Notes: generated by a model from the sequence alone, not told the origin. DNA of 64,000 nucleotides from an uncultured Flavobacteriaceae bacterium (GCA_964550895.1 CAZKAP010000003.1:49082-113081); one strand, 5' to 3'. Numbered from the stretch's first letter, positions 7,156 through 21,704 are shown. Numbers and translations: made by a program.

Positions 7156-7167
7156 CAGTTGTGGTCT

Positions 7168-8307
7168 TTATTCGTTGTTTTCCGCATCTTCCTCTTCCTC
7201 ATCGCCCTTCTTGATAGGTTGGGTCTTGTTCCATTCCTTGACCTTGTCTTCCTCGGTCAGGCCCGAAATGATCTCTACATTAATGCCATCGGACAGCCCA
7301 ATTTCAATATCGCGACGTTCGAATTTCCCCTCTTCGTTAAGGACTTCGACATAGGGCTCATTCGTGGATCGATCGAACTGTAGCAGGGCCTCCTGTATCA
7401 CCAGGACGCTGTCTCTGCTTTCCAACACGAAGGAGGCATTGGCACTGTAGCCGGCACGAATCTGGAATTCCTCATCCAGAGACACTTCGCCTTCGATCTT
7501 AAACTGAACGGCCCCCCCTTCATCCGTACCCTTGGGAGCAACGAATCGAAGAGTGGCCTCGTACTCCTTATCTTCAATGGCCCCCATGGTAATAGTCAGG
7601 GGCATACCGACCTTAAGCTTGCCCACCTCGCCCTCGTCTACCTGGCCTTCAAATATCATTTTACTCAGGTCGGCCAATATGGCCACGGTGGTACCGGCGT
7701 TGAAGTTATTACTCTGTATCACCTGATCCCCTATTTTCACCGGAATCTCGAGTATGGTTCCCGACACCAGGGCACGAATATTGGTATTGGCCTCGGTGAT
7801 TCCGCCGGCAGTTCCCCTGCGGATGATCTGGTAATCGGCCTTGGCATTCTTGAGCTCCTGCTCCGCACGATCATAAGTCAGCTGCAGGTTCAGGTAGTCC
7901 TGGCTCGAGATCACGCCTTTATCGTAAAGCGCCTTGCTGCGATCGTACTCGATCTTGGCATTGTTCCGGGCGAGTTCAGCGTTCCGCACCCTGCCCTGGG
8001 CCTGATTCAGAGCCTGCTCGTTAGGTACCACCTTGATAATGGCGATCAGGTCTCCACTCTTGACTTTGTCCCCCTCTTTCTTGAGGATTTTATCGACGAT
8101 ACCGGTGATCTGGGGTTTGATCTCCACCTCGTCTTCGGGTACTACACTGCCGGTAGCGACCGTTTTCTTCTCTATACTGGAGATAAATGGGGAGTAGGTC
8201 TCGTATTGAACGGACCCTTTGCTGTTTGAACTGATAAAGAACGAAGCAGCGGCAAGACCTCCTACCACCAGGACGACTATCGCGAATATTATCAGAAACT
8301 TCTTCAT
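7168..8307 (-). CDS. efflux transporter periplasmic adaptor subunit (HlyD/MacA-like)
   Basis: 379 aa. N-terminal TM anchor, lipoyl-like segment (VKSGDLIAIIKV) and a coiled-coil hairpin. Paralog of 18086-19177. Confidence 0.85.
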   Translation of the reverse strand: MKKFLIIFAIVVLVVGGLAAASFFISSNSKGSVQYETYSPFISSIEKKTVATGSVVPEDEVEIKPQITGIVDKILKKEGDKVKSGDLIAIIKVVPNEQALNQAQGRVRNAELARNNAKIEYDRSKALYDKGVISSQDYLNLQLTYDRAEQELKNAKADYQIIRRGTAGGITEANTNIRALVSGTILEIPVKIGDQVIQSNNFNAGTTVAILADLSKMIFEGQVDEGEVGKLKVGMPLTITMGAIEDKEYEATLRFVAPKGTDEGGAVQFKIEGEVSLDEEFQIRAGYSANASFVLESRDSVLVIQEALLQFDRSTNEPYVEVLNEEGKFERRDIEIGLSDGINVEIISGLTEEDKVKEWNKTQPIKKGDEEEEDAENNE

Positions 8308-8343
8308 TAGACTGGGTATTTGTTGTTGTTATGCAATCTGTTT

Positions 8344-9609
8344 TTATTCTTCTCGTAATGCCTCTATAGGCCGGATTCTCAGTGCCCTCTGCGCAGGTAT
8401 TAGTCCGATAAGGGTACTGAATACGACCATGATCACCAGGGCCACTATCACAAAGGGAATAGGAACCGTCGGATTTGTATAGGGGAAATCCGTCAGGTCC
8501 TTTGTGGCCCTATCGACCAGCCAAAGCACCAGCGCCCCAAACGAAATGCCGTATATACCCGAAATCAGGGTCAGCACCGTACTCTCGAGTATGATCAGTG
8601 TTCGAACCTCGACGGGTTTGGCCCCCAGGGCCCGTCGCACACCGAGTTCCTTGGTACGCTCCCGGACGGAAATCAGCAGTATGTTCCCGATGGAGATCAC
8701 TCCGGCCAATATGGTGGCAACCCCAATGATCAGGGAGAGCAGCGTCATGCCCGAGGAAAAATTCTTGATGTTGTTAAATATCGCGCCCAGGTTTACGGAG
8801 GAAATCGCCACCTCGTCCGTCGGATCGATGTCCTTCTCGAATTTCAGGACCGCCTTGATGTCTTTCTCGACCTGGACCACGTCCGAGCTGTCGTAAGCCG
8901 CAATCAGCATCCAGTTTACCCGATCCCCGGTATTGTATAACTTCCGGTACGTATTGAACGGGATGTAGATGTCCGTATCGGCGGAAAACGGACTGGATTG
9001 AATAAATTTCTGGACACCGATCACCTGGAAACTCACCCCGTCGATCTCGATAAATTCGCCCACGGCCTTCTCCCCTTTTTCGAAGAGCTCGGCCTTGGCG
9101 CGTTCGCCAATCACACAGACCTTACGCTCGTACTTCATGTCATCGTCATTGATGTAGCGACCGCCCTCATAAATGTCGCGGGTGGCGATTTTCAGAGACA
9201 CAGGGGATTCCCCGTAAACGGCATAGCTTCCCTGTTGCAAGCCGCGCTTGATCACACCACCGGGGCTTCCGAATATCCCTTTGGCATTGGATGGGGCAAT
9301 GAATTCGATATCCGGCACCCGCTTTTTGAGCAGGCTCAGGTCCTCGATCCGGATGGGAACAAAGCGGCCCTTCTTAAAACCCGCGTAGGGTTTGCTGGTG
9401 CGCTGTGCCCAGACGAACATCGTATTGATCGCCGTGCGTTCAAATGCCCGGTCGAATCCATTGTCCAGACCCTTGGCTGCACCGGACATGGTGATGTACA
9501 CAAAGATTCCCCAGAAAACACCGAACATCGTCAACAGGGTGCGCACCCAGTTGCTTCCGATGGAATTGAAGATTTCCTGCCAGGTATTTAAGCTAAAGAG
9601 TAGTTTCAT
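8344..9609 (-). CDS. ABC transporter permease (MacB/FtsX-type)
   Basis: 421 aa. N-terminal TM, large periplasmic domain and C-terminal FtsX bundle (RERTKELGVRRALGA). Paralog of 19198-20451. Confidence 0.85.
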   Translation of the reverse strand: MKLLFSLNTWQEIFNSIGSNWVRTLLTMFGVFWGIFVYITMSGAAKGLDNGFDRAFERTAINTMFVWAQRTSKPYAGFKKGRFVPIRIEDLSLLKKRVPDIEFIAPSNAKGIFGSPGGVIKRGLQQGSYAVYGESPVSLKIATRDIYEGGRYINDDDMKYERKVCVIGERAKAELFEKGEKAVGEFIEIDGVSFQVIGVQKFIQSSPFSADTDIYIPFNTYRKLYNTGDRVNWMLIAAYDSSDVVQVEKDIKAVLKFEKDIDPTDEVAISSVNLGAIFNNIKNFSSGMTLLSLIIGVATILAGVISIGNILLISVRERTKELGVRRALGAKPVEVRTLIILESTVLTLISGIYGISFGALVLWLVDRATKDLTDFPYTNPTVPIPFVIVALVIMVVFSTLIGLIPAQRALRIRPIEALREE

Positions 9610-10839
9610 TTATTCGCTTCTCATGGCCTCAACGGGCTGGATTCGGGCTGCCCTGCGAGCGGGGATCATCCCCGCCAGGATTCCGCAGACGATTAACAAT
9701 ACCGTGGCCGATATGGCAAACCGCCCACTCACGTAAGGATCTTCGATGAAGTAGTCACTCAGTACATCCCCCATATTCTCCAGGATAAGTACGCCTATAC
9801 CCATGCCTATAAAACCGAAGATGATGGTAATTACCGAGGCCTCCAGTAGGATGATTCCAATGATGTCCCTGGGACGGGCCCCTACCGCCTTGCGGATACC
9901 GATCTCACGGGTACGCTCCTTGACCACGAACACCATGATGTTTCCGATAGCCACAATTCCGGCGATGATCGTTCCTATAGCGAAGGAGAGTGCGATCATC
10001 CCCAGGGCCCCTGCAAACTGCTGATTGCGCTCATAGTCACTGGCGATATTGCGTACGAAAATGGCCCGTGTATCGTCGGGGTTTATAAACTTCTTGTCCC
10101 TCAGGAAATTCAGGACATTATTCTGGAAAGCGGTGGCTATCTGAGCGCTGATGCCGGGCTTGAACAAGATGATCAGGAAATCGACTTTATCGGTACTCTT
10201 CTCGATTCGCTGGACTGTCTTGTACGGTACGTAAATGATGCGTTCGGCATTATCCCCGTCGTCGTCCTGAAAGACCCCAACCACCTGAAAAGCGATTCCG
10301 CCTATATCCAGGTAGGTCCCGATAGGGTCCTCATCCCCGTACAGGTCCTTGACCACCATACGCCCGATCACGCATACCTTAGTCCGGTCCTTAAGATCCT
10401 TGTCGTTGATGAAGCGCCCCTTCATCATTATGGTCTGTTCTACTATGCGGTGGGAAGGAGCTACGCCCTGGGTGGTATAGTTGTTGGATTCCTGCTTGTA
10501 GCGCACCAAATTCCCCCGTGAAATCCTGGGGGAAACGGCCGAAAGGAAATTGGCGAAGTTCTCCTGTATATCGGCTATATCGGAATTCTCGAACTCGATA
10601 CGCCGATTGGATTCGTATCCCTTGAACGGTATGGAAGTACGTCCGGGAAAGAAGTAGATTACGTTGGTGGGGTTATTTCCGAAGAACTTGTCGAAGGTAT
10701 TCTTCAGGCCGTTGGTCAGGCCGACCAGGATAACGACGATAAAAATACCCAGGGCCATGGTAAAGCCCGTGAGGAACGTCCGGAGCTTGTTCTTCCGGAG
10801 CGTAGAGTAGATTTCTTTCCAGGCCTCCAGACTAAACAT
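9610..10839 (-). CDS. ABC transporter permease (MacB/FtsX-type)
   Basis: 409 aa. Same architecture (KERTREIGIRKAVGA) and abuts the next permease with no gap. Paralog of 20460-21704. Confidence 0.85.
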   Translation of the reverse strand: MFSLEAWKEIYSTLRKNKLRTFLTGFTMALGIFIVVILVGLTNGLKNTFDKFFGNNPTNVIYFFPGRTSIPFKGYESNRRIEFENSDIADIQENFANFLSAVSPRISRGNLVRYKQESNNYTTQGVAPSHRIVEQTIMMKGRFINDKDLKDRTKVCVIGRMVVKDLYGDEDPIGTYLDIGGIAFQVVGVFQDDDGDNAERIIYVPYKTVQRIEKSTDKVDFLIILFKPGISAQIATAFQNNVLNFLRDKKFINPDDTRAIFVRNIASDYERNQQFAGALGMIALSFAIGTIIAGIVAIGNIMVFVVKERTREIGIRKAVGARPRDIIGIILLEASVITIIFGFIGMGIGVLILENMGDVLSDYFIEDPYVSGRFAISATVLLIVCGILAGMIPARRAARIQPVEAMRSE

Positions 10840-11533
10840 GCGGTGTAACTCTTACCTGTTCGACCTTCTCGTCCTTTACAATCACCCCATCTTTGAGGTA
10901 AACGATTCGCTTACACATGTGGGCGATATCGTCCTCATGTGTGACGACCAGTATGGTGTTTCCCTCATCGTTGATCTTCTGGATCAGGGCCATAACCTCA
11001 TGGGATGTAGTGCTGTCCAGGGCCCCTGTGGGCTCATCGGCCAGTAGTACCTTAGGCTCAGATGCCATGGCACGGGCGATGGCCACGCGCTGCTTCTGTC
11101 CACCGGAAAGCTCGCCGGGAAGGTGCTTGGCCCATTCCCTAAGGCCCACCCTTTCCAGGTATCCCATCGCCTTGCGGTTGCGCTCCTTACGCGCCATCCC
11201 CTGATAATAGAGGGGCAATGCCACGTTCTCCAGCGCAGATTTATAATTGATCAGATTAAACGACTGGAAAACGAAGCCCAGAAACTTGTTGCGATACTCC
11301 GCCGCTTTGGTCTCGTCCAGATTTTTGATGGGAACTCCATCCAACTCGTAGATCCCGGAATCGGCGCTATCCAGTATGCCGATGATGTTTAACAGGGTCG
11401 ACTTTCCCGATCCGGAGGATCCCATAATGGCCACAAGTTCGCCCGATTCCACCGTAAAGTCGATACCCTTGAGAACATGCAGGGAATTCGAGCCCATTTG
11501 GTAGGATTTGTGCAGGTCTTTGATTGTAATCAT
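10832..11533 (-). CDS. ABC transporter ATP-binding protein (MacB/LolD-type)
   Basis: 233 aa. Walker A GSSGSGKST, signature LSGGQKQR, Walker B LLADEPTGALD. Overlaps the downstream permease by 8 nt. Confidence 0.9.
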   Translation of the reverse strand: MITIKDLHKSYQMGSNSLHVLKGIDFTVESGELVAIMGSSGSGKSTLLNIIGILDSADSGIYELDGVPIKNLDETKAAEYRNKFLGFVFQSFNLINYKSALENVALPLYYQGMARKERNRKAMGYLERVGLREWAKHLPGELSGGQKQRVAIARAMASEPKVLLADEPTGALDSTTSHEVMALIQKINDEGNTILVVTHEDDIAHMCKRIVYLKDGVIVKDEKVEQVRVTPHV

Positions 11534-11709
11534 CTGGCGCTTTATTTTGTTAAGGGGAACGTCCTTCCCATAAGACTCTCGAGCTACCGAGGTGTTACCT
11601 GAATTATCTTAATATTTTGTTAACACACACTAAAATTCAGGCTTCGACGGACGAACGGCTTATTTCTACCGACCAACTGCATATGCCCCTCCGATGTTCC
11701 GTTTCTTGT

Positions 11710-12186
11710 TTAACGGTTCTCGAGCGTACAGAGTACAAAGTTACCCGTCCATCTTCGAATACGTGTGTAATTTGAGTTAAATCGAAGTCGGCCTACTGCA
11801 GGATCCATAAGCCAACATCCGTTCCTTTCCGCTTCGTACCGGACCGCATAGTGTAGCGAATTCGATGGTCCGCCCAGGATCAGGATAACGGGCATAGTTA
11901 GACAAAGTCCCTCTAGTCCAGCTTGGACCGCCCGGGGGTCAACCCACATACTCCGGGTCTGCACGCCCCATTTCTCCAAAGCAGCTTCCAAATCGATGAG
12001 ACGGGTTCCCCCGGCTCCTGTACGGCAGGAGTTATACACCTCATCGTAGCCCACCTGTATACCGAAAAACCTGAAAACCGAAACCGCACAGGCGGGTCCG
12101 CAATCGGCGCGGGCCCTTTGTCGGACTTCCACGCCGAGACGGCGAAGATCATGAGGCCTTTGGAAATTGCCACCCCATCGAAACAA
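11710..12186 (-). CDS. stand-alone peptidase C39-like (double-glycine leader / bacteriocin-processing) cysteine protease domain
   Basis: 158 aa with a TTG start; there is no in-frame ATG before residue 80. C39 signature Q23-x5-C29 (VRQRARADCGPACAVSV), H112 (SLHYAVRY) and D128-P (LMDPAVG). No ABC transporter part is attached. Confidence 0.7.
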   Translation of the reverse strand: MFRWGGNFQRPHDLRRLGVEVRQRARADCGPACAVSVFRFFGIQVGYDEVYNSCRTGAGGTRLIDLEAALEKWGVQTRSMWVDPRAVQAGLEGLCLTMPVILILGGPSNSLHYAVRYEAERNGCWLMDPAVGRLRFNSNYTRIRRWTGNFVLCTLENR

Positions 12187-12200
12187 TTGAAACCTGTTTT

Positions 12201-12428
12201 CTATTTACCGTATAAAACGAAAAAGGAAGAAACCCTGCGGTAGAACATGTATTCGAGTACCCAGCGATAAAAGGGACGGGCTATGCGGTATCGGACGGTA
12301 TTGGAATCGATCAATCGGAAGAGATAAACGCTGACATAGCGATCCCTGAGCATTTTTCGGATTGAACGGTCCTGATACGCGGGAAGATAGGACTGTTCGA
12401 AGTCATAAAAAACTGAACCTAAACGCAT
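12201..12428 (-). CDS. hypothetical protein (possible gene remnant)
   Basis: 75 aa with an ATG start. Tyr/Arg/Phe-rich with no recognisable domain. Ends 15 nt upstream of the C39 gene. Confidence 0.25.
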   Translation of the reverse strand: MRLGSVFYDFEQSYLPAYQDRSIRKMLRDRYVSVYLFRLIDSNTVRYRIARPFYRWVLEYMFYRRVSSFFVLYGK

Positions 12429-12953
12429 TAATCGTAATTCTGCTTCATCCGCAACAGATCAAAGATATAACTCTTTAAACAAAACAAGTCTGAATACTCG
12501 ACGGGAGGCTAAGAAGTTATCCACCAAAGGAACCCATCTCCGGTGTATGCTTTTGTCTCGGTTCCGAGGGCAGCGGGTTAAGCAAAAGATTGGCCAGCAT
12601 AGCGCCGGCCAATCCCCATCAGTCATGATCACAGTCTATATGATAGAGCTTCCTGCCGTAATTGAAGCTCTTCACATACAGTTCAAGTATGGCTACGGTC
12701 CAGTTCGGACGGATAAATCCAGCGCGGATATCCATCCTTTCTTCCATGGAAAGCACTCGCATATGAACCCGGCTAGTGGTCACTTACTGATGATTCATAA
12801 ATGAACCCGGTCATGGTCCCTATAAGCACGGCATCTATGGCCAGCATGACCACCAATGGAATAACCGGCAATGGTCTCAGTTCGGATTGGGCAGTTGATA
12901 CAATCAATAGTCTACGGATTTATTCTTTTCCTACTCTTTTCAGGATTTTCGGC

Positions 12954-14192
12954 TTACTCCTTGGTCGAAGCGCTTCGGGATCCCGGGAAGCCAACGACTC
13001 TTCTAAAGTAATGTCCCGGACTGTAGATTTCATTCGCCCGCATCAGATACCTAATCAGGACGATGGACAAAAGGGCGAACGGGTACAGTCGGGGTAAAAG
13101 CGAAGCGATCGTATTCTCTGTATCGCCCGGATGAATCGCTGCCTGCAGCAGTAGAGTCATCACGCCGGAGTCATAACTTTGATATACAGCGTATAACAAT
13201 CCAACAAGAAATAATGAAACCGCCAGGTAATGCAGTAAACCGAGTAGCGCAAGTAGCCGTGAATTCCCTGGATGCAGCCATATACGAGGGTTTTTAAGCC
13301 TCCTCGCCAATTCGACCCTCGCCCGTTCATTCAGCCGGTCTACTCCGGTCAGATCCGTGAGTACCCAATAGCCATCTCCCCTGACTAATGGGTTCAGGTT
13401 CCAGAGCGACCGGAGCAGGATAAGGACCGCCGCCAATTTCCCGGAACCGAAGCCCCATAACTCCGAGGCTGTAAGGAGTGCCGCGCAAAAGGCCCATTCG
13501 AAATAAATCCCCGCCAGGTTAACGTGTACCCTCTTCCGCGGACTCAAACGCCAGGCATCCGTCACATCGGAAAACATCACCGGGAACACCAGATACAACC
13601 CGCCGCCTATAATACCGGGACGCCCACCGTAGTACAGGAGGGCCGAGGCATGTCCGAATTCGTGCAACAATACCGAGCAGGCCGTGATAAGGAGTTCTGC
13701 CGGCCAATTGAGTTCTTCCGGGTCGAGCTGAACCGGATGGGACATCCAAAGACTGACAGTCAGCCATAGCACGACCATCAGCACTGCCGGCCATGCATGC
13801 AGGAAGCTGAACAGCCGGCTCGCAGCCGCCACCCGCTGCCTATCCAGAAGGGTAAACCCCCAAAGGAGATAAGGTGGAATAGTCCCCTCGGGAGCCGGAG
13901 GCGGTTCGTCTAAGAAGAGCCCCTTGTTTCGGAAGCGGGAATCGTAAATACGAAGGACATCTTCCTCTTCAAGACGAGTGCCCAGCTCGGCATTCAGCGC
14001 CGGAGCGACCTGGTGAAGGGACCTGTTCGACCGGAGGAGTCTCAGGAAAAGATAGCCTGACAGGTTCGTTTTCAAATATGTGGATGCTCCTTCTTTCCAG
14101 ACCAGCCACTTTCCCGGTCCCACGGGCTTGAACCGTACGGCAGGGTCGAGCTGTAGCTTCGGTACCGATGCCTGTTTATCCGTATAAGGCAT
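12954..14192 (-). CDS. PqqD/RRE-like domain fused to M50 (site-2-protease-like) membrane zinc metalloprotease
   Basis: 412 aa. Residues ~11-96 follow the PqqD/RRE pattern (PKLQLDPAVRFKPV..KWLVWKEGASTYLKTNLSGYLFLRLL..RSLHQVAPALNAELG..EEDVLRIYDSRFRNKGLF). The multi-TM body carries HEFGH (13650-13664) and NLNPLVRGDG (13371-13400), i.e. HExxH plus NxxPxxxxDG. The ATG overlaps the upstream gene by 17 nt. Confidence 0.7.
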   Translation of the reverse strand: MPYTDKQASVPKLQLDPAVRFKPVGPGKWLVWKEGASTYLKTNLSGYLFLRLLRSNRSLHQVAPALNAELGTRLEEEDVLRIYDSRFRNKGLFLDEPPPAPEGTIPPYLLWGFTLLDRQRVAAASRLFSFLHAWPAVLMVVLWLTVSLWMSHPVQLDPEELNWPAELLITACSVLLHEFGHASALLYYGGRPGIIGGGLYLVFPVMFSDVTDAWRLSPRKRVHVNLAGIYFEWAFCAALLTASELWGFGSGKLAAVLILLRSLWNLNPLVRGDGYWVLTDLTGVDRLNERARVELARRLKNPRIWLHPGNSRLLALLGLLHYLAVSLFLVGLLYAVYQSYDSGVMTLLLQAAIHPGDTENTIASLLPRLYPFALLSIVLIRYLMRANEIYSPGHYFRRVVGFPGSRSASTKE

Positions 14193-16050
14193 CCAGCGCG
14201 TAAATCGTTGAAACGGCTCGGCTCCGAAAGGCCTGTCCGGGCCTGGGGGTTACAAATGGGACGGATTCCCAGGAACCATCCTCGCTTTGAGTTCGAAGCA
14301 GGAAATCCCTGGCATCCCGATAAAACGGATGATGCCCATAGCCAATATCCCGCATACAAAGGGACACAAGAGCCGTTGAGAGCGGGTCAGATTCGGCCCC
14401 GGGCTGCAATCCGAAGCCTCCATCCGGATTCCGGCCTTGGTTCAGGAATTCATCCCATCGCTGTAGGCAATCTCCTTTGAATTCCCCGAGTCTGTAGAGG
14501 TACCGGCCTACCTTGTAGGTTCCGTAGGGCCAGCCCACGTACCACCGGCTGGCCCAGGCCCCCGAGGGCAGTTGTGCATTCTTCAGATAGGCCAAGGATG
14601 CAGACCGGAGGGGCTCCAGCAATAGCGGGCGGTAATCCAGCAGGACATCGTACATATTGGCCACTACCTCGGGGTCCGGACCCATACCCCAGAGGCGGCT
14701 GTTCAATTCCCGCTGCCACTGGGAATTCCTTTGATCAGCACCACCCGTGATCCAGGTCAACATTACCCCTTTACTGTCCAGACCGCAGGATGCATGACGG
14801 CTCAATATTTCGTAGCAGTACCGGTCGATCAGATCGCGCCGGCCCATTCGAAGAAAAAAACGAATGACCTGCGACAAGTCGTCTATATCCGCTGAGAGGT
14901 TAGGCAGACTGGGAAAGTAGGACCACAGGCCGACGGCATGGTCTCGCCGCTGTCTCAGGTAATAGTCCACTTCCCGTTCCAGGTAGTTTCGCATATCGGC
15001 GGATGGGTTTTCCTGTCGGGCCAGGAAATCATCGGCCAGCAAGCGGTAAAAGAGGTCTGAACTATGTATACCCGAAACCCCCCGAAATCCTTCTCCTTCG
15101 GATACGTACATAAAGTGCCTGAGACCCGGCCAATTCCTCTTGCGCTCCTCGTTCAGGAATCCAAGGCCCCGCTGCCTGTGCAGGTCATGGTCAGGACTAA
15201 GTCGACCCGGTTTATCTGCCCCATCGGAAAGGGATACCCTCAATCGGCTGTGGGCCATTTGGACATATCCCAGGGCCTGCTTGTCGTAAAAACGCAATTC
15301 CCTAAGTACCTGTGCAACTGCCCCGCGCCACTGGCCATCACCTGGAATCAGTTGCAGTGCCTGTTCAAGTTGCCCGAACGCCCGCTCGAAAATCCAATGG
15401 GCGTGCCCCTTCAAATACATCGATTTCCTCGCAGCCTCCATCTCCTTTCGGGTCTCGGGCCAGCCGTGTTTGAGCGACCAGGTATACCATACCCAGTTGA
15501 ACCGTCTGGCCGTGAAATCCTCTTCGACATCGACCAGGTCGTCATAGAGCTGCAGGGCCACGGAGAAGCTGGAATGCGATTTCAGTAAGCTCAGGTATAT
15601 CGGCCTCACCGTCTCCCGGTCCTCTGTAAGCAGGAAGAGTCCGTCCAGGGCCAGTTTAGCCAACGCTGATTTGGCCTCGGCCAGTTTGCTGAAATCGTCG
15701 AATCCCAGTTGTTTACCCCCGGCAAATGACCTTTCCGTCCTGACGGCCCATGCCATTTCGGCCTCCCTGGAGGACCACTTTGCCCAGAAGGGGCTTTCCG
15801 GGCTGAAGAGGCCATTCAGTATCGACACGGACTGACGATATGCCCCTAGCAAGGGCAGTAGGGCATCCGGATCAGCCTCATCGACCAGCCGGTCCCATTG
15901 AAGTGCAGCCTGAAAGCACTCCCTGCCGGACGCATCGAGCCGGTTTACTAACGGTCTTTCCACCTGGGGAAAAAAGTCCCTGAACAGGCTCGCGTAGTTT
16001 TGGTAATACGCGTATAATCTATTCCTCAATGGATCTGCCGGATGTGCCAT
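14176..16050 (-). CDS. terpene-synthase-like fusion protein: class I isoprenoid-synthase-like N-domain + class II cyclase / prenyltransferase-repeat C-domain
   Basis: 624 aa. The N-terminal part has DRLVDEAD (15871-15894) and ALQLYDDLVDVEED (DDLVDVEED = 15517-15543), about 117 aa apart. The C-terminal part has SADIDDLSQV (DIDD = 14878-14889) and QW-type repeats AYLKNAQLPSGAW (14554-14592), NQGRNPDGGFG and RDFLLRTQSEDGSW (14269-14310). Confidence 0.65.
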   Translation of the reverse strand: MAHPADPLRNRLYAYYQNYASLFRDFFPQVERPLVNRLDASGRECFQAALQWDRLVDEADPDALLPLLGAYRQSVSILNGLFSPESPFWAKWSSREAEMAWAVRTERSFAGGKQLGFDDFSKLAEAKSALAKLALDGLFLLTEDRETVRPIYLSLLKSHSSFSVALQLYDDLVDVEEDFTARRFNWVWYTWSLKHGWPETRKEMEAARKSMYLKGHAHWIFERAFGQLEQALQLIPGDGQWRGAVAQVLRELRFYDKQALGYVQMAHSRLRVSLSDGADKPGRLSPDHDLHRQRGLGFLNEERKRNWPGLRHFMYVSEGEGFRGVSGIHSSDLFYRLLADDFLARQENPSADMRNYLEREVDYYLRQRRDHAVGLWSYFPSLPNLSADIDDLSQVIRFFLRMGRRDLIDRYCYEILSRHASCGLDSKGVMLTWITGGADQRNSQWQRELNSRLWGMGPDPEVVANMYDVLLDYRPLLLEPLRSASLAYLKNAQLPSGAWASRWYVGWPYGTYKVGRYLYRLGEFKGDCLQRWDEFLNQGRNPDGGFGLQPGAESDPLSTALVSLCMRDIGYGHHPFYRDARDFLLRTQSEDGSWESVPFVTPRPGQAFRSRAVSTIYALDALYG

Positions 16051-17152
16051 ATATGCCTGGTTTTGGATGATCCCCTATAAGAGCCCGACCCGGATTTTCC
16101 TTTCCCAGTTGGCGATGCCAGGGCACATTGGGGTCGAGTCCCGATTTCGAATACGACAGCCCGGTGTCGTTCCCGTGATTAAACAATTCAATCTCCATCC
16201 TGTACTTAAGGAAAGAACCGGAATCGTACACCTCGCCTTCCTCAATAAATCTTACCCGTCTCAGGCTGAACCATGGATCCTTGTAGTCGATCCAGAGCTC
16301 GGTGCACTGTCGACGGAGCCTTCGGCCATGTTGTCCTCCTCCCTTTTCGATATGGGATTCGGGCAGGTACTCATAGAATATGCGGTATGCTCCATCATTT
16401 TCCTCGGGATAGAGTAGTGATCCCGATATATACGAACGCTTGCTGTCCTCGTGGCGCACGCGGAATTCGCAGGTACGATGGCTTCCCGGGCCGGACCGCT
16501 CATGCCAGGACCAAATCCAGCCCGGCCGGAACAGGAAGCCCACGGTGGTATTCAGATAAAACAGTCTGGCAATGTCCCGGTTCGGAACGAACCCCCTGTC
16601 CCAGGGACTCGTCTGAGGCGAGTATTTCAGATAGTCCAGATTGTATCCGTAGATGCTGAATTGCCTGTGCCATTTTCGCCCAGGAGCAAACCGGGTTCGC
16701 AGTCGGCTCACGGCGAACTGGGCCTGAAGCTGACGTTTAGGCATTCCATCGACCCGGAATGCTTCCCGGTAGGTCAGTAGCTGTGGTCGGGATACCCGTT
16801 TGGCACGAATCAGCCGCTGGTAAATGCTTCTGGGATGGGTGGCCACCAGGTTGACTTCGTTCAATTCCAATCGCTTGGGCCACAGATAGACCGTATCCGT
16901 CTGATTGCGCTTCATGCGGTATGCGTCTATGGATTCGAAGCCGATATGGGAAATACGGAGCCGGGGATTAGGATCGGGTATCCGGCATTGGCCCTCCTTA
17001 TCTGAAAATCGTATCCTGCCGGTTTCCCTCTCGGTGATTGCCACATTCTCCAAAGGCCGCATGCGTTCTGCATCCATGACGATCAGGCCGTATCCCTGGG
17101 TCCAAGCCGTCGAAGGCAGCAAGACCATAAGCAAAACTCGTATCCATTTCAT
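16019..17152 (-). CDS. secreted carboxypeptidase-regulatory-like (CarboxypepD_reg) domain protein, function unknown
   Basis: Start moved to ATG 17152 (MKWIRVLLMVLLPSTAWTQ signal peptide). A CarboxypepD_reg-like segment follows (GLIVMDAERMRPLENVAI...DKEGQCRI...LRISHIGFES); the rest is unassigned. Overlaps the downstream gene by 32 nt. Confidence 0.55.
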   Translation of the reverse strand: MKWIRVLLMVLLPSTAWTQGYGLIVMDAERMRPLENVAITERETGRIRFSDKEGQCRIPDPNPRLRISHIGFESIDAYRMKRNQTDTVYLWPKRLELNEVNLVATHPRSIYQRLIRAKRVSRPQLLTYREAFRVDGMPKRQLQAQFAVSRLRTRFAPGRKWHRQFSIYGYNLDYLKYSPQTSPWDRGFVPNRDIARLFYLNTTVGFLFRPGWIWSWHERSGPGSHRTCEFRVRHEDSKRSYISGSLLYPEENDGAYRIFYEYLPESHIEKGGGQHGRRLRRQCTELWIDYKDPWFSLRRVRFIEEGEVYDSGSFLKYRMEIELFNHGNDTGLSYSKSGLDPNVPWHRQLGKENPGRALIGDHPKPGIYGTSGRSIEE

Positions 17153-17186
17153 AGAAAAAGAGTGGCCCGTTCCGGGCCACCCGCAA

Positions 17187-17336
17187 TTAAAATCGAACTT
17201 TGGCGGTGAGTTCGAGGTCACCGTTAGACGGTTCGTACTGAACACCTACGTCTCCGCCGCGGATCCAGCCCATCTCGAATCGCTGTTCGAGTTCCACCAC
17301 ATCAAAGAGGTCCATCAATTCATCGGATTCATGCAT
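17187..17336 (-). CDS. candidate precursor peptide with double-glycine (GG) leader, 49 aa
   Basis: Not in the ORF track because it is under 60 aa. Runs from ATG 17336 to TAA 17187-17189: MHESDELMDLFDVVELEQRFEMGWIRGG|DVGVQYEPSNGDLELTAKVRF. The leader end EMxxIRGG matches the double-glycine consensus at positions -1, -2, -4, -7, -8 and -15. It lies 34 nt upstream of the next gene on the same strand. Confidence 0.5.
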   Translation of the reverse strand: MHESDELMDLFDVVELEQRFEMGWIRGGDVGVQYEPSNGDLELTAKVRF

Positions 17337-17353
17337 CTGCTTACGTTTTTAGG

Positions 17354-17511: not shown

Positions 17512-17784
17512 TCATCCGCCATAGAGCTCCGTCGTCTCGTCTTCATTGACGATCATCACACTGATCCGCACCTTCAGGTTGAAGTATTCCTTGTAGAAGT
17601 AGGTCTTACGGGATCGGTCGTATCCGATTCGCGCCTTGAAATCCTTCAACTGTTCGATCAGGTGGTACACCAGCCGTTCACTGATGCGCAGCCTCCCTGC
17701 GAGCTCTGTGGGACTGCCTGTACTTTCGGTTTCGATGGCCTTGTGAATAAACTGAAGCCGTTCGAGATTCCTGATGTTATTCAT
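17512..17784 (-). CDS. small winged-helix-turn-helix protein (putative transcriptional regulator)
   Basis: 90 aa. HTH pattern STGSPTELAGRLRISERLVYHLIEQLKD followed by a wing-like IGYDRSRKTYFY, resembling DeoR/HTH_11 N-terminal domains. Confidence 0.6.
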   Translation of the reverse strand: MNNIRNLERLQFIHKAIETESTGSPTELAGRLRISERLVYHLIEQLKDFKARIGYDRSRKTYFYKEYFNLKVRISVMIVNEDETTELYGG

Positions 17785-18085: not shown

Positions 18086-19177
18086 CTATTTTACATTCCA
18101 GACCTTAATGCGGTCGGATTCACTCAGTCCATCCCGGATTTCGACATAGAGTCCGTCACTGACACCCAGGACCACATCACGGCGCTCGAAGTTCTTTTCG
18201 CCCGTTGCCACCTCCACGAAAGGACGATTGGTCTCCTTGTCGAATTGCAGCAGCCCTTCCTTGATGGCCAGGACACTATCGGCCTGCTCGAGTATAATGG
18301 AGGCATTCGCACTGAGTCCTGCCCGAATAAATACGGAATCCGCCTTCCTGAGCGTGCCCTTGATCTCGAACTGAATGGCCCCGTTCTCCTCGACTCCCTT
18401 GGGCGCAATATAGTCCAGTACGGCATCGAAAACCTGGTTTTTGAGGGCACCAACTGTAATTTCCAATGGCAGATTCTCGGTAACATTCCCTACTTCGGCC
18501 TCGTCGATCTTGCCTTCGAATATCATGCGGTTGATGTCCGCTATAGCCGCGATCGTAGTGCCTTCGTTGAAGTTGTTGGCCTCGATCACCTGGTTCCCCA
18601 CTTCCACGGGTACATCCAGAACCATGCCGCTTACGGTAGCCGTGATCCGTGTATTTGCCGCCTTACCCAACTCCCTGGTGGAACCCGTCCGGACGATGTC
18701 GTATCGCTTACTGGCGGCACTAAACGCCAGGTTGGCCTGATCGTAATTCACCTGGGCCACATCCATATCGGCCTGCGAGATCACCCCCCGTTCGAACAGG
18801 GACTTCTGGCGGTCGTAGTTGCGCTTCTGGTCTGCCCTTCGAATTCGAGCCTCTTCCACCGCATTCCTCGCATCATTGAGTTGCTGCAAATTGGGCACGA
18901 CTTTGATGCGCGCGATGAGGTCTCCCGACTTGACGTAATCGCCACCTTCGACAAATACGGCTTGAATAACGCCGGATATATTGGGCTTGATCAGCACCTC
19001 CTCCTTGGGTATGATCTTGCCTGTGGCTACGGTCTTTCGCACGATGTCACGGCGCTCAGGAGATTCGGTAGTGTAGCTGACGGGATCCTCCTGATTCTTA
19101 GTGTACAGGTAGTACATGGATGCGCCGAATCCGATGACGATCAGGCTGAGAACTGCAATGGTGATCCATTTTTTCAT
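18086..19177 (-). CDS. efflux transporter periplasmic adaptor subunit (HlyD/MacA-like), paralog
   Basis: 363 aa. Aligns along its full length with 7168-8307 (for example SGDLIARIKVVPN... versus SGDLIAIIKVVPN...). Confidence 0.85.
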   Translation of the reverse strand: MKKWITIAVLSLIVIGFGASMYYLYTKNQEDPVSYTTESPERRDIVRKTVATGKIIPKEEVLIKPNISGVIQAVFVEGGDYVKSGDLIARIKVVPNLQQLNDARNAVEEARIRRADQKRNYDRQKSLFERGVISQADMDVAQVNYDQANLAFSAASKRYDIVRTGSTRELGKAANTRITATVSGMVLDVPVEVGNQVIEANNFNEGTTIAAIADINRMIFEGKIDEAEVGNVTENLPLEITVGALKNQVFDAVLDYIAPKGVEENGAIQFEIKGTLRKADSVFIRAGLSANASIILEQADSVLAIKEGLLQFDKETNRPFVEVATGEKNFERRDVVLGVSDGLYVEIRDGLSESDRIKVWNVK

Positions 19178-19197
19178 GACGGTGTTTTAATCAACTG

Positions 19198-20451
19198 CTA
19201 TTCGGTTCGTATGGCTTCTATTGGGCGTACCCGCAGGGCACTCCGGGCGGGAATAAATCCGGCGAGCAGACCGGAGCCCACCAGGAAAAACAGGGCAAGG
19301 GCCACATAGCCGATCTGGACGCTCGGATTGAAAAACATATCGACGGGGCCGACCTGTTCCAGGGCGTAATTGATTCCGTAAATGGTCAGGGCGCCGAAGC
19401 CCACCCCCATCATCCCGCTCAGTACGGTAATCACGGCGGACTCCGCCAGAATCTGATACCGAATCGAGGAGGCCTTCTCCCCTAGGGCCCTTCGAATTCC
19501 GATCTCCCGTGTGCGTTCCTTCACGATGATGAGCATGATGTTGCTTACCCCGATTATACCGGAGAGCAAGACCATGAGGCCAACGACTATGGCGACCAGG
19601 TCCAGCACATCGAAAAGGGACTGCACCTTACCGAATTCCTCGAATATATCGTTGTTGCCAATCGCCCGGTTATCGGTGGGGCTTACCCGGTGATTCCGCT
19701 TCAGCACATCTATGATCTGACCCTTCAGGGCGGTGATGGGAAACTCGTCTTCCGCCGTGATCGCCATCCATCCGACCCGGTCTCCCTGATTAAAGACCTG
19801 GTTGAATGAGGTGAACGGCACATATATGGACTTCTGGTCTTCGGTATCGTCGGCACTCTCGTTCGCCTTCTTGTAGGTTCCGACTACCTGGAAGTTCACG
19901 CCCTGTATCTTGATGTAGGTGCCCAGTACCTCTTCGTCCGATTTATAGAGTTCACGGACTACACCCGGACCGATCACGGCAATCTTACGCCGTTTTTCTA
20001 TGTCCCATGCGTTGATAAACCGACCCAGAGTGATGTCCATGGGTTCCTGGTTCATGATATCCGGAAAATCGGCGAAGATCACATAACTCCCACTCTCCAC
20101 GCCGCGAATAACATTAGGTTCACTGCTGCGCTGTTGGTTGCGGCCGGAAATATACTTCAGGTGAGGGACCTGATCCCGTATGGCCTCCAGGTCACCAACC
20201 CGGTAGCGGATCGGCCGGCCTTTGGGCAATCCATCATAGGCCTCGGTAGTGCTCCGTCCCCAAATGAATACCGTATTGGTGGCTATGTTCCCGAAGTCGA
20301 GGCGAACGCCTTTCTCCAGGCCGTCGTTTACCGCCAGCAGGAGGATGAAGATGTAGATCCCCCAGCCGACGCCGAAGGCCGTCAGTAGCGTCCGGCTCGG
20401 CTTGGCGGCGAGCACCTCCAGTATTTCCCTCCATCGGTCAGCTGAAAACAT
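19198..20451 (-). CDS. ABC transporter permease (MacB/FtsX-type), paralog
   Basis: 417 aa. FtsX C-terminal bundle (KERTREIGIRRALGE). Paralog of 8344-9609. Confidence 0.85.
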   Translation of the reverse strand: MFSADRWREILEVLAAKPSRTLLTAFGVGWGIYIFILLLAVNDGLEKGVRLDFGNIATNTVFIWGRSTTEAYDGLPKGRPIRYRVGDLEAIRDQVPHLKYISGRNQQRSSEPNVIRGVESGSYVIFADFPDIMNQEPMDITLGRFINAWDIEKRRKIAVIGPGVVRELYKSDEEVLGTYIKIQGVNFQVVGTYKKANESADDTEDQKSIYVPFTSFNQVFNQGDRVGWMAITAEDEFPITALKGQIIDVLKRNHRVSPTDNRAIGNNDIFEEFGKVQSLFDVLDLVAIVVGLMVLLSGIIGVSNIMLIIVKERTREIGIRRALGEKASSIRYQILAESAVITVLSGMMGVGFGALTIYGINYALEQVGPVDMFFNPSVQIGYVALALFFLVGSGLLAGFIPARSALRVRPIEAIRTE

Positions 20452-20459
20452 CGTCCTTG

Positions 20460-21704
20460 TTATTCTTCCTTAAGTGCTACTACCACCCGGGTACGGGCGG
20501 CCTTCATGGCCGGAACCAGTCCGGCTATGGTGCCGGCAACTACCAGCACCAGGACCATGGCCGTGGCAATCTTAAAATCTACTGCCGGATACCTGAGGTA
20601 ATCGATAGCCAGATCGGCCCCAAATATCTCCAGCAGCCCCATACTGGCAATGAACCCCATACTGCCGGAAACTACCGTAATAAAAAGGGCCTCGTGCAGA
20701 ATGAGACAGATAAGGCTGGACGGAGTGGCCCCCAGTGCCTTGCGTATGCCGAGCTCACGGGTTCGTTCTTTCACCACGATAAGCATGATGTTGCCCACTC
20801 CGACGATACCCGCAATCAGCGTGCAGATTCCCACAAACCAATTGAATATCGAAATATTGTTGATCAGGTTGTAGTACCGTTCGGTCTCCTCGGCCATACT
20901 CCAGATGAAAATGGCCCGTTCGTCTTCCGGCGCTACCCGATGCTTTCTCTTCAGGTAATCGAAAAACAATGCCTTGACGTGGGCCGTATGAGCCAGGGTT
21001 TCGTCCAGGGTCTCCTTTTCGTATAGGCTGAATGCGTAGTTGCCGACGCGGTTGAATTCGGCAAAGACCACCTCGGCCGTGGTAATAGGAACGTACATGC
21101 GCTGTTCCTCACTTTCATTCATTTCCTCGTAGACTCCGACCACCTTGAAGGGGATGCCTGAGAGTTCGATAAATTCCCCCAGGGGTGAGGAATCTTCCTC
21201 GAAGACTTCGTCCCTGAGCTTCTTTCCGATTACGATCACCTTACTGAGGTTCTCCAAATCCAGCGGATTCAGGAAACGGCCCTCGGCTATGGCCGCATTC
21301 TCGATAAACTGAAACTGGTCGTTTACGGCCTGAATCGAATACGGAAGTGCTTCGTCACCGTAAACGGCCGACACCCCACCGACAAACATGCGGGGAGAAC
21401 CGTATTCGTATTCGGAACCAAAGGCGTCGCTCAAATCATGAAATTCCTCCATGGAGAATCGAATCCTGCGTCCCGGATTCAGGCCGTCGTAGGCCATGGA
21501 AGTCGTTTCGGGCCAGACCCAGAGCGAGGTAGTGGAATCCTGTTCAAACTCGAACTCTATGCCGTTCTCCAGCCCTTTTCCAAAACCCAGAAGTATAACC
21601 AGTATAAAGATTCCCGAACTCACGGCCAGTCCGGTAAGGAAGGTCCTGAGCCTGTTTTTCCAGAGGGTCTCGAGTAACTCCTGCCATCGTTCGAGGTCAA
21701 ACAT
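20460..21704 (-). CDS. ABC transporter permease (MacB/FtsX-type), paralog
   Basis: 414 aa. Its start MFDLERWQELLETLWKNRLRTFLTG compares with MFSLEAWKEIYSTLRKNKLRTFLTG of 9610-10839. Confidence 0.85.
   Translation of the reverse strand: MFDLERWQELLETLWKNRLRTFLTGLAVSSGIFILVILLGFGKGLENGIEFEFEQDSTTSLWVWPETTSMAYDGLNPGRRIRFSMEEFHDLSDAFGSEYEYGSPRMFVGGVSAVYGDEALPYSIQAVNDQFQFIENAAIAEGRFLNPLDLENLSKVIVIGKKLRDEVFEEDSSPLGEFIELSGIPFKVVGVYEEMNESEEQRMYVPITTAEVVFAEFNRVGNYAFSLYEKETLDETLAHTAHVKALFFDYLKRKHRVAPEDERAIFIWSMAEETERYYNLINNISIFNWFVGICTLIAGIVGVGNIMLIVVKERTRELGIRKALGATPSSLICLILHEALFITVVSGSMGFIASMGLLEIFGADLAIDYLRYPAVDFKIATAMVLVLVVAGTIAGLVPAMKAARTRVVVALKEE

Follow-up and report, generated by a model that had tools for sequence, protein, structure and literature searches.

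The PC gene, which encodes a candidate bifunctional prenyltransferase–cyclase of 624 amino acids, occupies positions 14176–16050 of the analyzed stretch of 64,000 nucleotides (the window). These boundaries agree with a preliminary description of the locus, which had left out the strand; the open reading frame listing places the gene on the minus strand, as are all features given below, and has it overlapping the genes on both flanks. On the upstream side, PC adjoins a gene (16019–17152) for a 377-amino acid signal-peptide protein with a weak CarboxypepD_reg-like domain at its N terminus (Pfam CarbopepD_reg_2, E 3e-4, under cut-off), for which no relative was found in the PDB. We placed its start at the ATG at 17152, because a hairpin falls within the longer open reading frame that starts with GTG. 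Homologs of the 377-residue protein adjoin PC in 11 loci and are also found in the type-B locus L075. The hairpin (17160–17182) is GC-rich, with 10 base pairs (8 of them G–C) followed by the T-run TTTTTC, and its RNA fold reaches −22.2 kcal/mol (z = −3.6). It lies directly 3′ of the stop codon of a small gene (17187–17336) just upstream of the PC region and is a candidate attenuator or terminator. The small gene encodes a candidate precursor peptide of 49 amino acids, MHESDELMDLFDVVELEQRFEM-GW24-IRGGDVGVQYEPSNGDLELTAKVRF, in which GW comes after the leader motif VELEQRFEM, with Trp-24 as the candidate acceptor. Further upstream, a 90-amino acid HTH protein (17512–17784; weak HTH_11 and HTH_23 matches) is a candidate regulator; its homologs adjoin the cluster in 11 loci at 37–98% identity.

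Downstream, the PC stop is overlapped by 17 nucleotides by the gene of a 412-amino acid HExxH intramembrane metalloprotease (12954–14192), a candidate leader peptidase that matches NCBIfam daptide_HExxH (2.6e-35) and RiPP_HExxH_LiaK (1.6e-12), both under cut-offs. Two small accessory peptide genes (12619–12907) encode 44 amino acids (12773–12907) and 54 amino acids (12619–12783). They are followed by a stand-alone C39 cysteine peptidase domain of 158 amino acids (11710–12186; Pfam Peptidase_C39, 1.9e-16), whose gene occurs in 8 loci, and by an ABC ATPase, two MacB/FtsX permeases, an HlyD-type adaptor, and an outer-membrane factor (5758–11533), which are candidates for export or self-protection. 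The exporter families were assigned by Pfam on the syntenic genes of locus L001 (OEP for the outer-membrane factor), and in L016 and L048 the cluster is likewise followed by this set of genes. The operon contains no gene for a prenyl-diphosphate synthase, and neither aromatic-acid nor polyketide genes were returned when it was searched against Pfam and NCBIfam. This gene neighborhood is indicative of a RiPP pathway.

The AlphaFold model of the whole PC protein (pLDDT 88.8, pTM 0.81) consists of two domains, an N-terminal P domain (residues 1–275; 15226–16050) and a C domain (residues 290–624; 14179–15183). They are connected by a linker (residues 276–289; 15184–15225) that has block pLDDT values of 62–65, is devoid of secondary structure, and varies in length and sequence among homologs. 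A word-seeded search yielded 16 homologs, and conservation in the family extends along the entire protein; the 15 full-length homologs that we aligned share 25–72% identity with the window protein. [quoted passage not shown] The sequence motifs that it had listed in both halves were found again by reading and by regular-expression search. Its view that domain order and compact size are unusual did not hold, as the same fusion of P and C domains is widespread and is found in ChrPC (Hubrich et al., Chem 2024, 10:3224; PMC13290415). As described there, ChrPC combines an N-terminal trans-IDS-like prenyltransferase, which uses C10–C20 donors to prenylate a Trp at an internal position of a ribosomal precursor peptide, with an MstE-like monodomain class II cyclase that cyclizes the prenyl chain. 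Because ChrPC was already published with this architecture, the design of the window protein is not unprecedented.

The P domain is all-helical (pLDDT 88.7). Its Foldseek matches are almost all prenyl-chain synthases, not terpene synthases, with TM values of 0.62–0.66 to GGPP and octaprenyl-PP synthases (GGPPS 5JFQ, OPPS; 3WJO, 4JXN), and the Trp prenyltransferase Ord1 (9V4J) is also among the matches (TM 0.57–0.68). A profile search matched polyprenyl synthases with the first and second Asp-rich motifs (FARM and SARM) in register with 3TC1, 4LOB, and 8HDL, the best match, trans-prenyltransferase 8HDL, being marginal (E 0.0017). Pfam polyprenyl_synt (PF00348) weakly matches 5 of 12 family members (best E 0.0011), and a Pfam search of the window protein itself gave no PF00348 match. 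At the FARM position lies the reduced motif D53-R-L-V-D57 (15880–15894), part of DRLVDEAD (residues 53–60), which aligns with the DDxxD of octaprenyl-PP synthase 3TC1. Asp-57 is invariant and Asp-53 conserved among the 15 homologs, and both residues may serve in Mg2+/diphosphate binding of the prenyl donor.

The second Asp-rich motif and its upstream Gln, Q167-LYDDLVDVEE-D178 (15517–15552), lie within SVALQLYDDLVDVEEDFTARRF (residues 163–184), with Asp-53 and Asp-170 separated by 117 residues. In the alignment of the 15 homologs, Gln-167, Asp-171, and Asp-178 are invariant, and Asp-170 and Asp-174 nearly so; the DDLVD starting at residue 170 is the only DDxxD of the protein. The profile search aligned this region with the FQxxDDxxD of polyprenyl synthases and with 8HDL. 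Of the two similarities proposed earlier for this segment, that to the polyprenyl-synthase motif is supported by the profile alignment, whereas that to SQS/PSY is not, the best matches being polyprenyl synthases. The Gln is not diagnostic, because ordinary chain-elongating synthases also possess a Gln before the SARM. ChrPC features a conserved Gln right before its second Asp-rich motif, and this residue and the first SARM Asp have been assigned to recognition of the Trp indole in ComQ, PalQ, Ord1, and ChrPC (PMC13290415).

Two other assignments of the P domain were considered. The preliminary description had seen hallmarks of class I and class II terpene synthases in one polypeptide; the class II part is supported, whereas a class I terpene synthase or cyclase was rejected for the N-terminal domain, which resembles prenyl-chain synthases in its fold and, like the rest of the protein, lacks an NSE/DTE motif ([ND]Dxx[ST]xxxE) in a regular-expression search. 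The domain also differs from a canonical chain-elongating trans-prenyl diphosphate synthase, as its first motif is DxxxD and it has no PF00348 match.

The C domain (∼335 residues) forms one (α/α)6 barrel only and resembles monodomain class II terpene cyclases. phmmer found 8PAJ (3.9e-11) and squalene–hopene cyclase (SHC; 1e-6), the domain profile found SHC (1.8e-32) and 8PAK (4.7e-22), and the N-terminal half of the domain as a separate profile had no PDB match. Structurally, Foldseek aligned the domain with 8PAJ (E 9e-12, target-normalized TM 0.76) and with the MstE structures 6SBB–6SBG (target-normalized TM 0.62–0.68; 6SBB with E 2e-8 and TM 0.67–0.68). Pfam SQHop_cyclase_C matches residues 462–600 above the gathering score, and the domain carries the QW-type repeats QLPSGAW (position 493) and QSEDGSW (position 588) and a GRNPDGGFG repeat (residues 539–547). 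A squalene–hopene or oxidosqualene cyclase, which is a βγ didomain, was rejected based on the single barrel and on NCBIfam scores far under cut-off (TIGR01787, 39.4 bits versus 322.7; TIGR01507, 20.6 versus 431); the possibility raised earlier that the two halves form one ordinary βγ cyclase was likewise not borne out by the model.

The candidate general-acid motif, D388-I-D390-D391 (14878–14889), lies within NLSADIDDLSQV (residues 384–395) at the N terminus of a modeled helix (residues 389–401) and is the only DxDD of the protein. It is a candidate counterpart of the DxD acid motif of the MstE/8PAJ/8PAK group; in the profile alignment, Asp-388 and Asp-390 pair with Asp-100 and Asp-102 of the ADADSTAN motif of 8PAK. 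In MstE, the proven general acid is Asp-109, to which Asp-388 and Asp-390 may be equivalent. Although Asp-388 and Asp-390 are invariant among the homologs and match the DxD of the 8PAK cyclase, the third Asp varies (DSDL in P0013, DADS in P0014), as might be expected if the peptide were prenylated while the barrel were no cyclase, but a lipid- or peptide-binding module or the site of another acid-catalyzed step, and the product stayed linear. This possibility would also fit the restriction of sequence similarity with proven cyclases to the C-terminal QW-repeat half, and α/α toroids do include the prenyl-binding β subunits of protein prenyltransferases, proteins that rank further down among the fold and profile matches of the C domain. 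However, Foldseek E values are 1e-11 to 1e-8 for cyclases compared with 1e-4 for these β subunits, and ChrPC, a relative by architecture and context, does cyclize its prenyl chain (PMC13290415). We therefore regard a non-cyclase barrel as unlikely and favor a class II cyclase domain.

Searching with the P domain at E ≤ 1e-30 retrieved 428 proteins, each representing one 50%-identity cluster. Among the best 150 of these 428, 103 are of fusion length, and 98 of the 103 carry DxD[DESLN] in the equivalent region of the C-terminal half. Two very different cyclase-domain subtypes are found on the same P domain, the subtype of the window (WSYFP...ADxDDLGQ...GPDxEVVAN) and a second one (LWGYN...DADST), whose motif is nearer to 8PAJ/8PAK. 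Members occur in at least Bacteroidota, Cyanobacteria, Chloroflexota, and Acidobacteriota, and MAGs of Gemmatimonadota as well as a single archaeal MAG also gave matches. Identity to homologs from Chryseobacterium, Epilithonimonas, and Elizabethkingia amounts to 27–31%; six genomes of Chryseobacterium, presumably the genus to which the "Chr" of ChrPC refers, contain homologs with 28–31% identity. The role of PC proteins is hidden in databases, because their current labels read "hypothetical," "terpene cyclase/mutase family," or "prenyltransferase/squalene oxidase repeat-containing."

In Bacteroidota, Cyanobacteria, Chloroflexota, and Acidobacteriota, PC genes come together with a family of precursors whose leader is conserved. 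Precursor homologs adjoining PC genes display the leader F-x-V-E-E-L-E-x-R-x-E-M with a Trp after it, and the motif common to the family is (D/E)-(L/V)-x-E-L-E-x-R-(L/Y/F)-E-(L/M). In 117 of 120 motif peptides a Trp follows the leader motif, in 74 of them at a distance of 1–2 residues. The window precursor is 100% identical in protein sequence to that of a 72%-identical sister locus, and the two genes differ in 13 of 150 nucleotides, with 13 synonymous and 0 nonsynonymous changes; the window precursor is thus under strong purifying selection. In the clade of the window, the Trp lies at position −5 of a double-glycine-like site, E-M-G-W-I-R-G-G/D, with Glu at −8, Met at −7, Ile at −4, and the two glycines at −2 and −1.

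The true or additional substrates could instead be the downstream peptides, as the 54-residue peptide is encoded in the same operon and contains a single conserved Trp (FIRPNW, WLRPNW, or SNW). The 44- and 54-residue peptides, however, lack the family-wide leader motif, occur among the fetched loci in just five (L001–L003, L022, and L048) besides the window, and track the C39 peptidase, present in all of these, rather than PC, whereas the 49-residue type is near-universal. One or both peptides of the pair end their leader in a double glycine (...GG) in L022 and L048, where the two also share a C-terminal DH[DE]. We consider it quite improbable that these peptides take the place of, or join, the upstream 49-residue peptide, which remains our preferred substrate. 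Least probable of all, and very much so, is an action on a non-peptide small molecule next to unrelated bacteriocins, with the barrel cyclizing as MstE does on prenylated benzoate: PDB titles name small meroterpenoids as what MstE and other monodomain cyclases act on and the P domain has the fold of chain-elongating synthases, but motif-bearing peptides with Trp were present in 65 of 75 scanned sequences and a homolog of the RiPP-type HExxH protease next to PC in 66 of 74 loci from several phyla, PC overlaps both flanking genes, the DDxxD that normal chain elongation requires is missing from the FARM, and the operon is devoid of aromatic-acid or polyketide genes.

Taken together, PC is most likely a bifunctional RiPP maturase of the prenyltransferase–cyclase type, which would prenylate a Trp of the upstream-encoded peptide and then cyclize the attached chain. 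Prenyl transfer followed by cyclization, possibly on a peptide, had also been proposed in the preliminary description and agrees with all tests applied here, being supported by both folds and by the RiPP operon with its conserved Trp precursor. Two PC-type maturases have been characterized so far, ChrPC and NctPC (PMC13290415). With the first description of this type of enzyme dating from 2024, the window enzyme is a new member of a recently discovered kind and, by its predicted activity, a divergent representative of an already published design. We infer homology to ChrPC from architecture and context, with ChrPC compared by its description only; the candidate Trp of the window precursor corresponds to the internal Trp acceptor described for ChrPC. 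In contrast to the ChrPC system, the window operon also encodes a stand-alone C39 peptidase, a CarboxypepD_reg-like protein, and two further small peptides. NctPC, from a cyanobacterial proteusin pathway, is also a fused prenyltransferase–cyclase with an MstE-like C domain, and it geranylgeranylates Trp and then cyclizes the chain; its P domain, however, is an ABBA (cyanobactin-type) barrel, whereas that of the window is an all-helical trans-IDS fold (PMC13290415).

Like the P domain, ComQ, PalQ, and Ord1 have a helical trans-IDS fold with Asp-rich motifs and a Gln preceding the SARM, and all use Trp as acceptor (PMC13290415), but they stand alone without a cyclase, usually take shorter donors, and show marginal sequence similarity. 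MstE and the myxobacterial 8PAJ/8PAK, like the C domain, are single α/α barrels of ∼340–365 residues with QW-type repeats, yet they are stand-alone enzymes with small-molecule substrates, and the C domain of the window is a distinct subtype. Plant and fungal bifunctional diterpene synthases and SHC have DxDD-type protonation in common with PC, and the combination with Asp-rich, Mg-dependent diphosphate chemistry is a further parallel. The diterpene synthases differ in their βγ didomain, NSE/DTE class I part, opposite domain order, and free isoprenoid substrates, and SHC is a βγ didomain that requires 631 amino acids for the cyclase alone, compared with one barrel in the window protein.

Starting from the modeled folds, motif conservation, gene linkage, and precursor family found here, we propose a pathway in which donor length, site of attack on the Trp, cyclization, cleavage site, and export step are inferred only. 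The P domain would bind a prenyl diphosphate, probably C15–C20, via Mg2+ at the reduced FARM (Asp-53 and Asp-57), ionize it, and alkylate the indole of Trp-24 in the 49-residue precursor, with VELEQRFEM probably serving as the recognition element for the enzyme and the Gln-167/Asp-170–Asp-171 region positioning the indole. The C domain would then protonate the prenyl chain on the peptide at its distal double bond, with Asp-388/Asp-390 (and possibly Asp-391) as the general acid, to give a mono- or polycyclic terpenoid. Leader removal could be carried out by the translationally coupled HExxH intramembrane protease, and the lipopeptide may be exported by the adjacent MacB-type ABC, HlyD, and outer-membrane factor system.

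With two adjacent glycines located after the Trp (GWIRGG), cleavage by the C39 peptidase at this position, if it occurs, would separate the modified Trp from the C-terminal part of the peptide. It is conceivable, if doubtful, that the terpenoid ends up on the leader side of the C39 site or that the product is a multi-peptide bacteriocin. The leader-side terpenoid may transiently anchor the peptide in the membrane for its processing and export, the lipidated N-terminal fragment may itself be the active species, or only one component of a multi-peptide bacteriocin may be terpenylated. If true, any of these would be a use of peptide terpenylation that is not described for either ChrPC or NctPC.

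Peptides with cyclized terpenoid lipids are a very recently recognized class of natural products. The locus described here, from a marine-type Bacteroidota genome, adds an operon that is divergent and compact and seems to be complete, encoding a candidate regulator, precursor, HExxH protease, and exporter besides the PC enzyme. The size and span of the family, its shared leader motif, and its two cyclase subtypes offer a handle for genome mining and for the engineering of lipidated peptides.

The only ORF at 14176–16050 (minus strand) encodes the putative prenyltransferase-cyclase (PC) protein of 624 amino acids. The translation carries each motif of the preliminary description in its reported place: DRLVDEAD (aa 53–60), SVALQLYDDLVDVEEDFTARRF (aa 163–184), NLSADIDDLSQV (aa 384–395), the QW-type repeats QLPSGAW (position 493) and QSEDGSW (position 588), and GRNPDGGFG (aa 539–547). 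The protein possesses a single DDxxD motif (DDLVD at 170) and a single DxDD motif (DIDD at 388). Across 15 aligned full-length homologues that share 25–72% identity with the window protein, six residues (D57, Q167, D171, D178, D388, and D390) are invariant and two more (D170 and D174) nearly so, indicating that these motifs are more than chance resemblances.

A Pfam search gave SQHop_cyclase_C (aa 462–600) as the sole match of the PC protein and none in the N-terminal half. AlphaFold modeling from the family alignment yielded a confident structure with two domains (pLDDT 88.8, pTM 0.81 for the whole protein): an all-helical domain (aa 1–275) and a helical barrel (aa 290–624), connected by a poorly defined linker (aa 276–289).

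The N-terminal domain reached a pLDDT of 88.7 when modeled alone. Foldseek matched this model with GGPP, octaprenyl-PP, and further polyprenyl synthases (TM 0.62–0.66), and with the tryptophan prenyltransferase Ord1. A profile of the domain gave weak, consistent matches to polyprenyl synthases and to the trans-prenyltransferase 8HDL. In its alignment, D53xxxD57 coincides with the first Asp-rich motif and QLYDDxxD with the second, in agreement with the likeness to the polyprenyl-synthase motif FQxxDDxxD proposed from the sequence; the reduction of the first motif to DxxxD is a point against the chemistry proposed below. [quoted passage not shown] The likeness of the second motif to squalene and phytoene synthases (SQS/PSY) did not hold up, as the CrtM-like structure 8ISA ranked only 15th in the Foldseek search (TM 0.46), beneath many polyprenyl synthases.

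The C-terminal half is predicted to be a single class II-type barrel. The top Foldseek matches of the whole model are the 342–347-residue chains of the single-barrel myxobacterial structures 8PAJ and 8PAK (E 9e-12, target-normalized TM 0.76). Drimenyl-diphosphate synthase, squalene-hopene cyclase (SHC), and the monodomain class II cyclase MstE (E 2e-8, TM 0.62–0.68) are also among the best matches. A C-domain profile retrieved SHC (1.8e-32) and 8PAK (4.7e-22), and its alignment sets D388 and D390 opposite both aspartates of the 8PAK motif ADADSTAN. Only the long 8PAK profile alignment covers this region; a PDB search aimed at placing D388/D390 against D109 of MstE, with a profile restricted to the first half of the C domain, gave no significant match. 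An ordinary β-γ didomain cyclase, the alternative named in the preliminary description, is rejected because the model contains one barrel and the NCBIfam squalene-cyclase models score far below cut-off (39 bits versus 323).

The two-domain architecture had been taken as unusual and unprecedented, which is out of date: enzymes of this kind were described in 2024 (Hubrich et al., as summarized in review PMC13290415). According to this summary, the P domain of ChrPC prenylates an internal Trp with C10–C20 donors, and the C domain then cyclizes the prenyl group. NctPC is described as performing a ChrPC-like prenylation and cyclization, but with an ABBA-fold P domain, and its C domain is likened to MstE (PMC13290415).

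In the window protein, the stretch Q167-L-Y-D170-D171 is invariant or near-invariant across the family. A Gln before the second Asp-rich motif occurs in ordinary synthases as well, which is a point against giving weight to Q167. The review describes such a Gln, directly preceding the second Asp-rich motif, as common to the trans-IDS-like Trp prenyltransferases ComQ, PalQ, Ord1, and ChrPC, and places it, along with that motif's first Asp, near the indole N–H (PMC13290415). The window protein reproduces exactly the arrangement so described. Its proposed kinship to ChrPC is drawn from fold, motifs, domain order, and genomic context. The earlier functional proposal of prenyl transfer followed by cyclization, possibly on a peptide, is supported. 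By analogy to the enzymes summarized in the review, the window protein is best regarded as a divergent member of the kind described in 2024. Accessories specific to its clade comprise a C39 peptidase, a pair of extra peptides, and a CarboxypepD_reg-like protein.

Within the family, the P domain occurs fused with either of two very different C domains. Type A, which includes the window protein, is characterized by GGWSYFP...[AP]DxDDLGQ...GPDxEVVAN, and type B by LWGYN...W-x-x-DADS[ST]xFALLAL, a motif that resembles the ADADSTAN of 8PAJ/8PAK. The P domains of the window protein and a type-B protein are 32% identical, whereas their C domains gave no BLASTP alignment. Type-B proteins comprise P0040, P0224 (locus L075), and ∼65 others from the P-domain HMM search, with Flavobacterium, Tenacibaculum, Zunongwangia, Kordia, and Chitinophagaceae as hosts. 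Type-B loci share the precursor leader and the HExxH neighbor with type-A loci; in Flavobacterium crocinum, the type-B locus has the same layout, with a precursor (...FQVEELEKRYEFGW...), a CarboxypepD_reg-like protein, the PC enzyme, and an HExxH protease. Type-A homologues occur in six Chryseobacterium genomes, and no Chryseobacterium is found among the named type-B proteins; the “Chr” of ChrPC presumably stands for this genus.

The family is widely distributed. A word-seeded search had pointed to a rare family of 16 proteins, a word-filter artefact: scanning species-representative genomes by pattern revealed 72 PC loci (in Chryseobacterium, Epilithonimonas, Elizabethkingia, Flavobacterium, Maribacter, Tenacibaculum, Capnocytophaga, Nostoc, Chloroflexota, Acidobacteriota, and others), and the P-domain profile, used in an exhaustive HMM search, returned 1928 representatives at E≤1e-3 (428 at E≤1e-30). 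Fusions (≥600 aa) account for 103 of the 150 best P-domain matches. A homologue of the HExxH protease adjoins PC in 66 of 74 loci, and 65 of 75 scanned sequences contain a peptide bearing the leader motif E-[LIVM]-[ED]-x-R-[LFYIM]-[EQ]-[MFLTI], indicating that precursor, PC enzyme, and HExxH protease form the conserved unit. Almost all motif peptides (117/120) have a Trp after the motif; in 74 of the 120, mainly from Bacteroidota, it follows within at most two residues, as ...R(Y/F)EM-(G/A/K)-W.

Five loci (L008, L039, L014, L026, and L062) contain 4–6 tandem precursor genes with a shared leader and hypervariable cores. Many of these cores are Cys-rich, e.g. GWKVNLEICTGDACNEQ, with CxxxC-rich ones in Chloroflexota, which suggests further modifications (disulfides or thioethers) alongside terpenylation. 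A third domain is found in some family proteins: a GldB_lipo/DUF2268 predicted Zn-protease-like domain at the C-terminus of P0014 (874 aa) and P0105 (988 aa), and a MauE membrane domain at the N-terminus of P0060 (978 aa), suggesting maturases fused with processing or membrane modules.

In the window, the PC gene belongs to a minus-strand operon and overlaps both flanking genes, sharing 32 nt with the one at its start and 17 nt with the one at its end. Downstream follows the gene for a 412-aa HExxH intramembrane metalloprotease (12954–14192), related in NCBIfam to the daptide and YydH/LiaK RiPP proteases. Upstream lie the gene for a 377-aa signal-peptide protein (16019–17152) with a weak CarboxypepD_reg-like domain, no sequence relative in the PDB, and no NCBIfam match; ahead of it the 49-aa precursor ORF MHESDELMDLFDVVELEQRFEMGWIRGGDVGVQYEPSNGDLELTAKVRF (17187–17336); and a gene for a small HTH protein. 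A strong 10-bp GC-rich hairpin with a T-run (17160–17182, minus strand) is located 4 nt past the precursor stop and just ahead of the next ATG (17152), and its position indicates that a 408-aa ORF with a GTG start is over-extended. Hairpins of this kind are typical of attenuators that boost the precursor-to-enzyme transcript ratio in RiPP operons. The operon contains no prenyl-diphosphate synthase gene, a further point against the chemistry proposed below.

A sister locus (L001), recovered from two sequencing runs and one uncultured Flavobacteriaceae MAG, shares this gene order. The precursor protein is 100% identical in both loci, and all 13 differences in its 150 nt of DNA are synonymous, which argues that the precursor is a real and strongly constrained gene. 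Over 11700–17340 of the window, the flanking transport and regulator proteins are 93–98% identical to those of the sister locus, and the maturation proteins 72% (PC), 67% (HExxH), 62% (377-aa protein), and 59–63% (C39). DNA identity declines gradually from 82–89% in the flanks to 65–80% in the core, with no sharp boundary. The divergence of the enzymes may reflect a recent gene replacement, rapid evolution around a frozen substrate, or old recombination.

Further downstream of PC, a pair of neighboring genes for small peptides (44 and 54 aa, 12619–12907, minus strand) is followed by a 75-aa ORF (12201–12428, minus strand; MRLGSVFYDFEQSYLPAYQDRS...) and a stand-alone C39 peptidase (11710–12186, minus strand). 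The 75-aa product, with many Tyr, Arg, and Phe residues, matched no family; a counterpart with 92% identity is encoded in the sister locus, and none was found in the other loci. The peptide pair, which co-occurs with the stand-alone C39 peptidase, has counterparts in L022 (4787–5117) and L048 (10987–11248), where at least one peptide of the pair has a leader ending in GG (KELKGG/ILPV..., TQAKGG/WLRPNW..., KKIHGG/LAPF...). The two peptides have a DH[DE]-type C-terminal end in common. The window versions are degenerate, with IRAG/F in the 54-aa peptide and no GG in the 44-aa peptide. Together with the C39 peptidase, the pair seems to form a double-glycine bacteriocin module of the two-peptide type, an addition to the terpenyl-peptide cluster.

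The RiPP genes are flanked by two MacB/FtsX-type permease and HlyD-adaptor sets: FtsX, FtsX, and HlyD (18086–21704, minus strand) and, beyond the C39 peptidase, ABC ATPase, FtsX, FtsX, HlyD, and OMF (5758–11533, minus strand), the latter also carried behind the cluster by L016 and L048. This arrangement suggests that a tripartite efflux locus either received the cluster as an insertion or was recruited by it. Elsewhere, the window consists of ordinary Bacteroidota chromosomal DNA, which encodes, among others, SprA of type IX secretion/gliding (2386 aa, 29615–36775, minus strand), IF-2, a malic enzyme-PTA fusion, cytochrome oxidase subunit I, and ferredoxin-type and NrfD-type proteins, probably of alternative complex III.

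The folds, conservation, and linkage are results of the present analysis, and the chemistry of the pathway is modeled on ChrPC and NctPC as the review summarizes them. The leader VELEQRFEM is probably recognized by the PC enzyme. The P domain would ionize a prenyl diphosphate, held via Mg2+ at D53/D57, and alkylate Trp24, and the D388/D390(/D391) motif of the C domain would protonate the distal double bond, with cyclization of the chain. Where the precursor is processed is in question, because a GG pair follows the Trp in the precursor of the window clade (GWIRGG). The HExxH protease would cut off the leader, and a MacB-type system would export the product.
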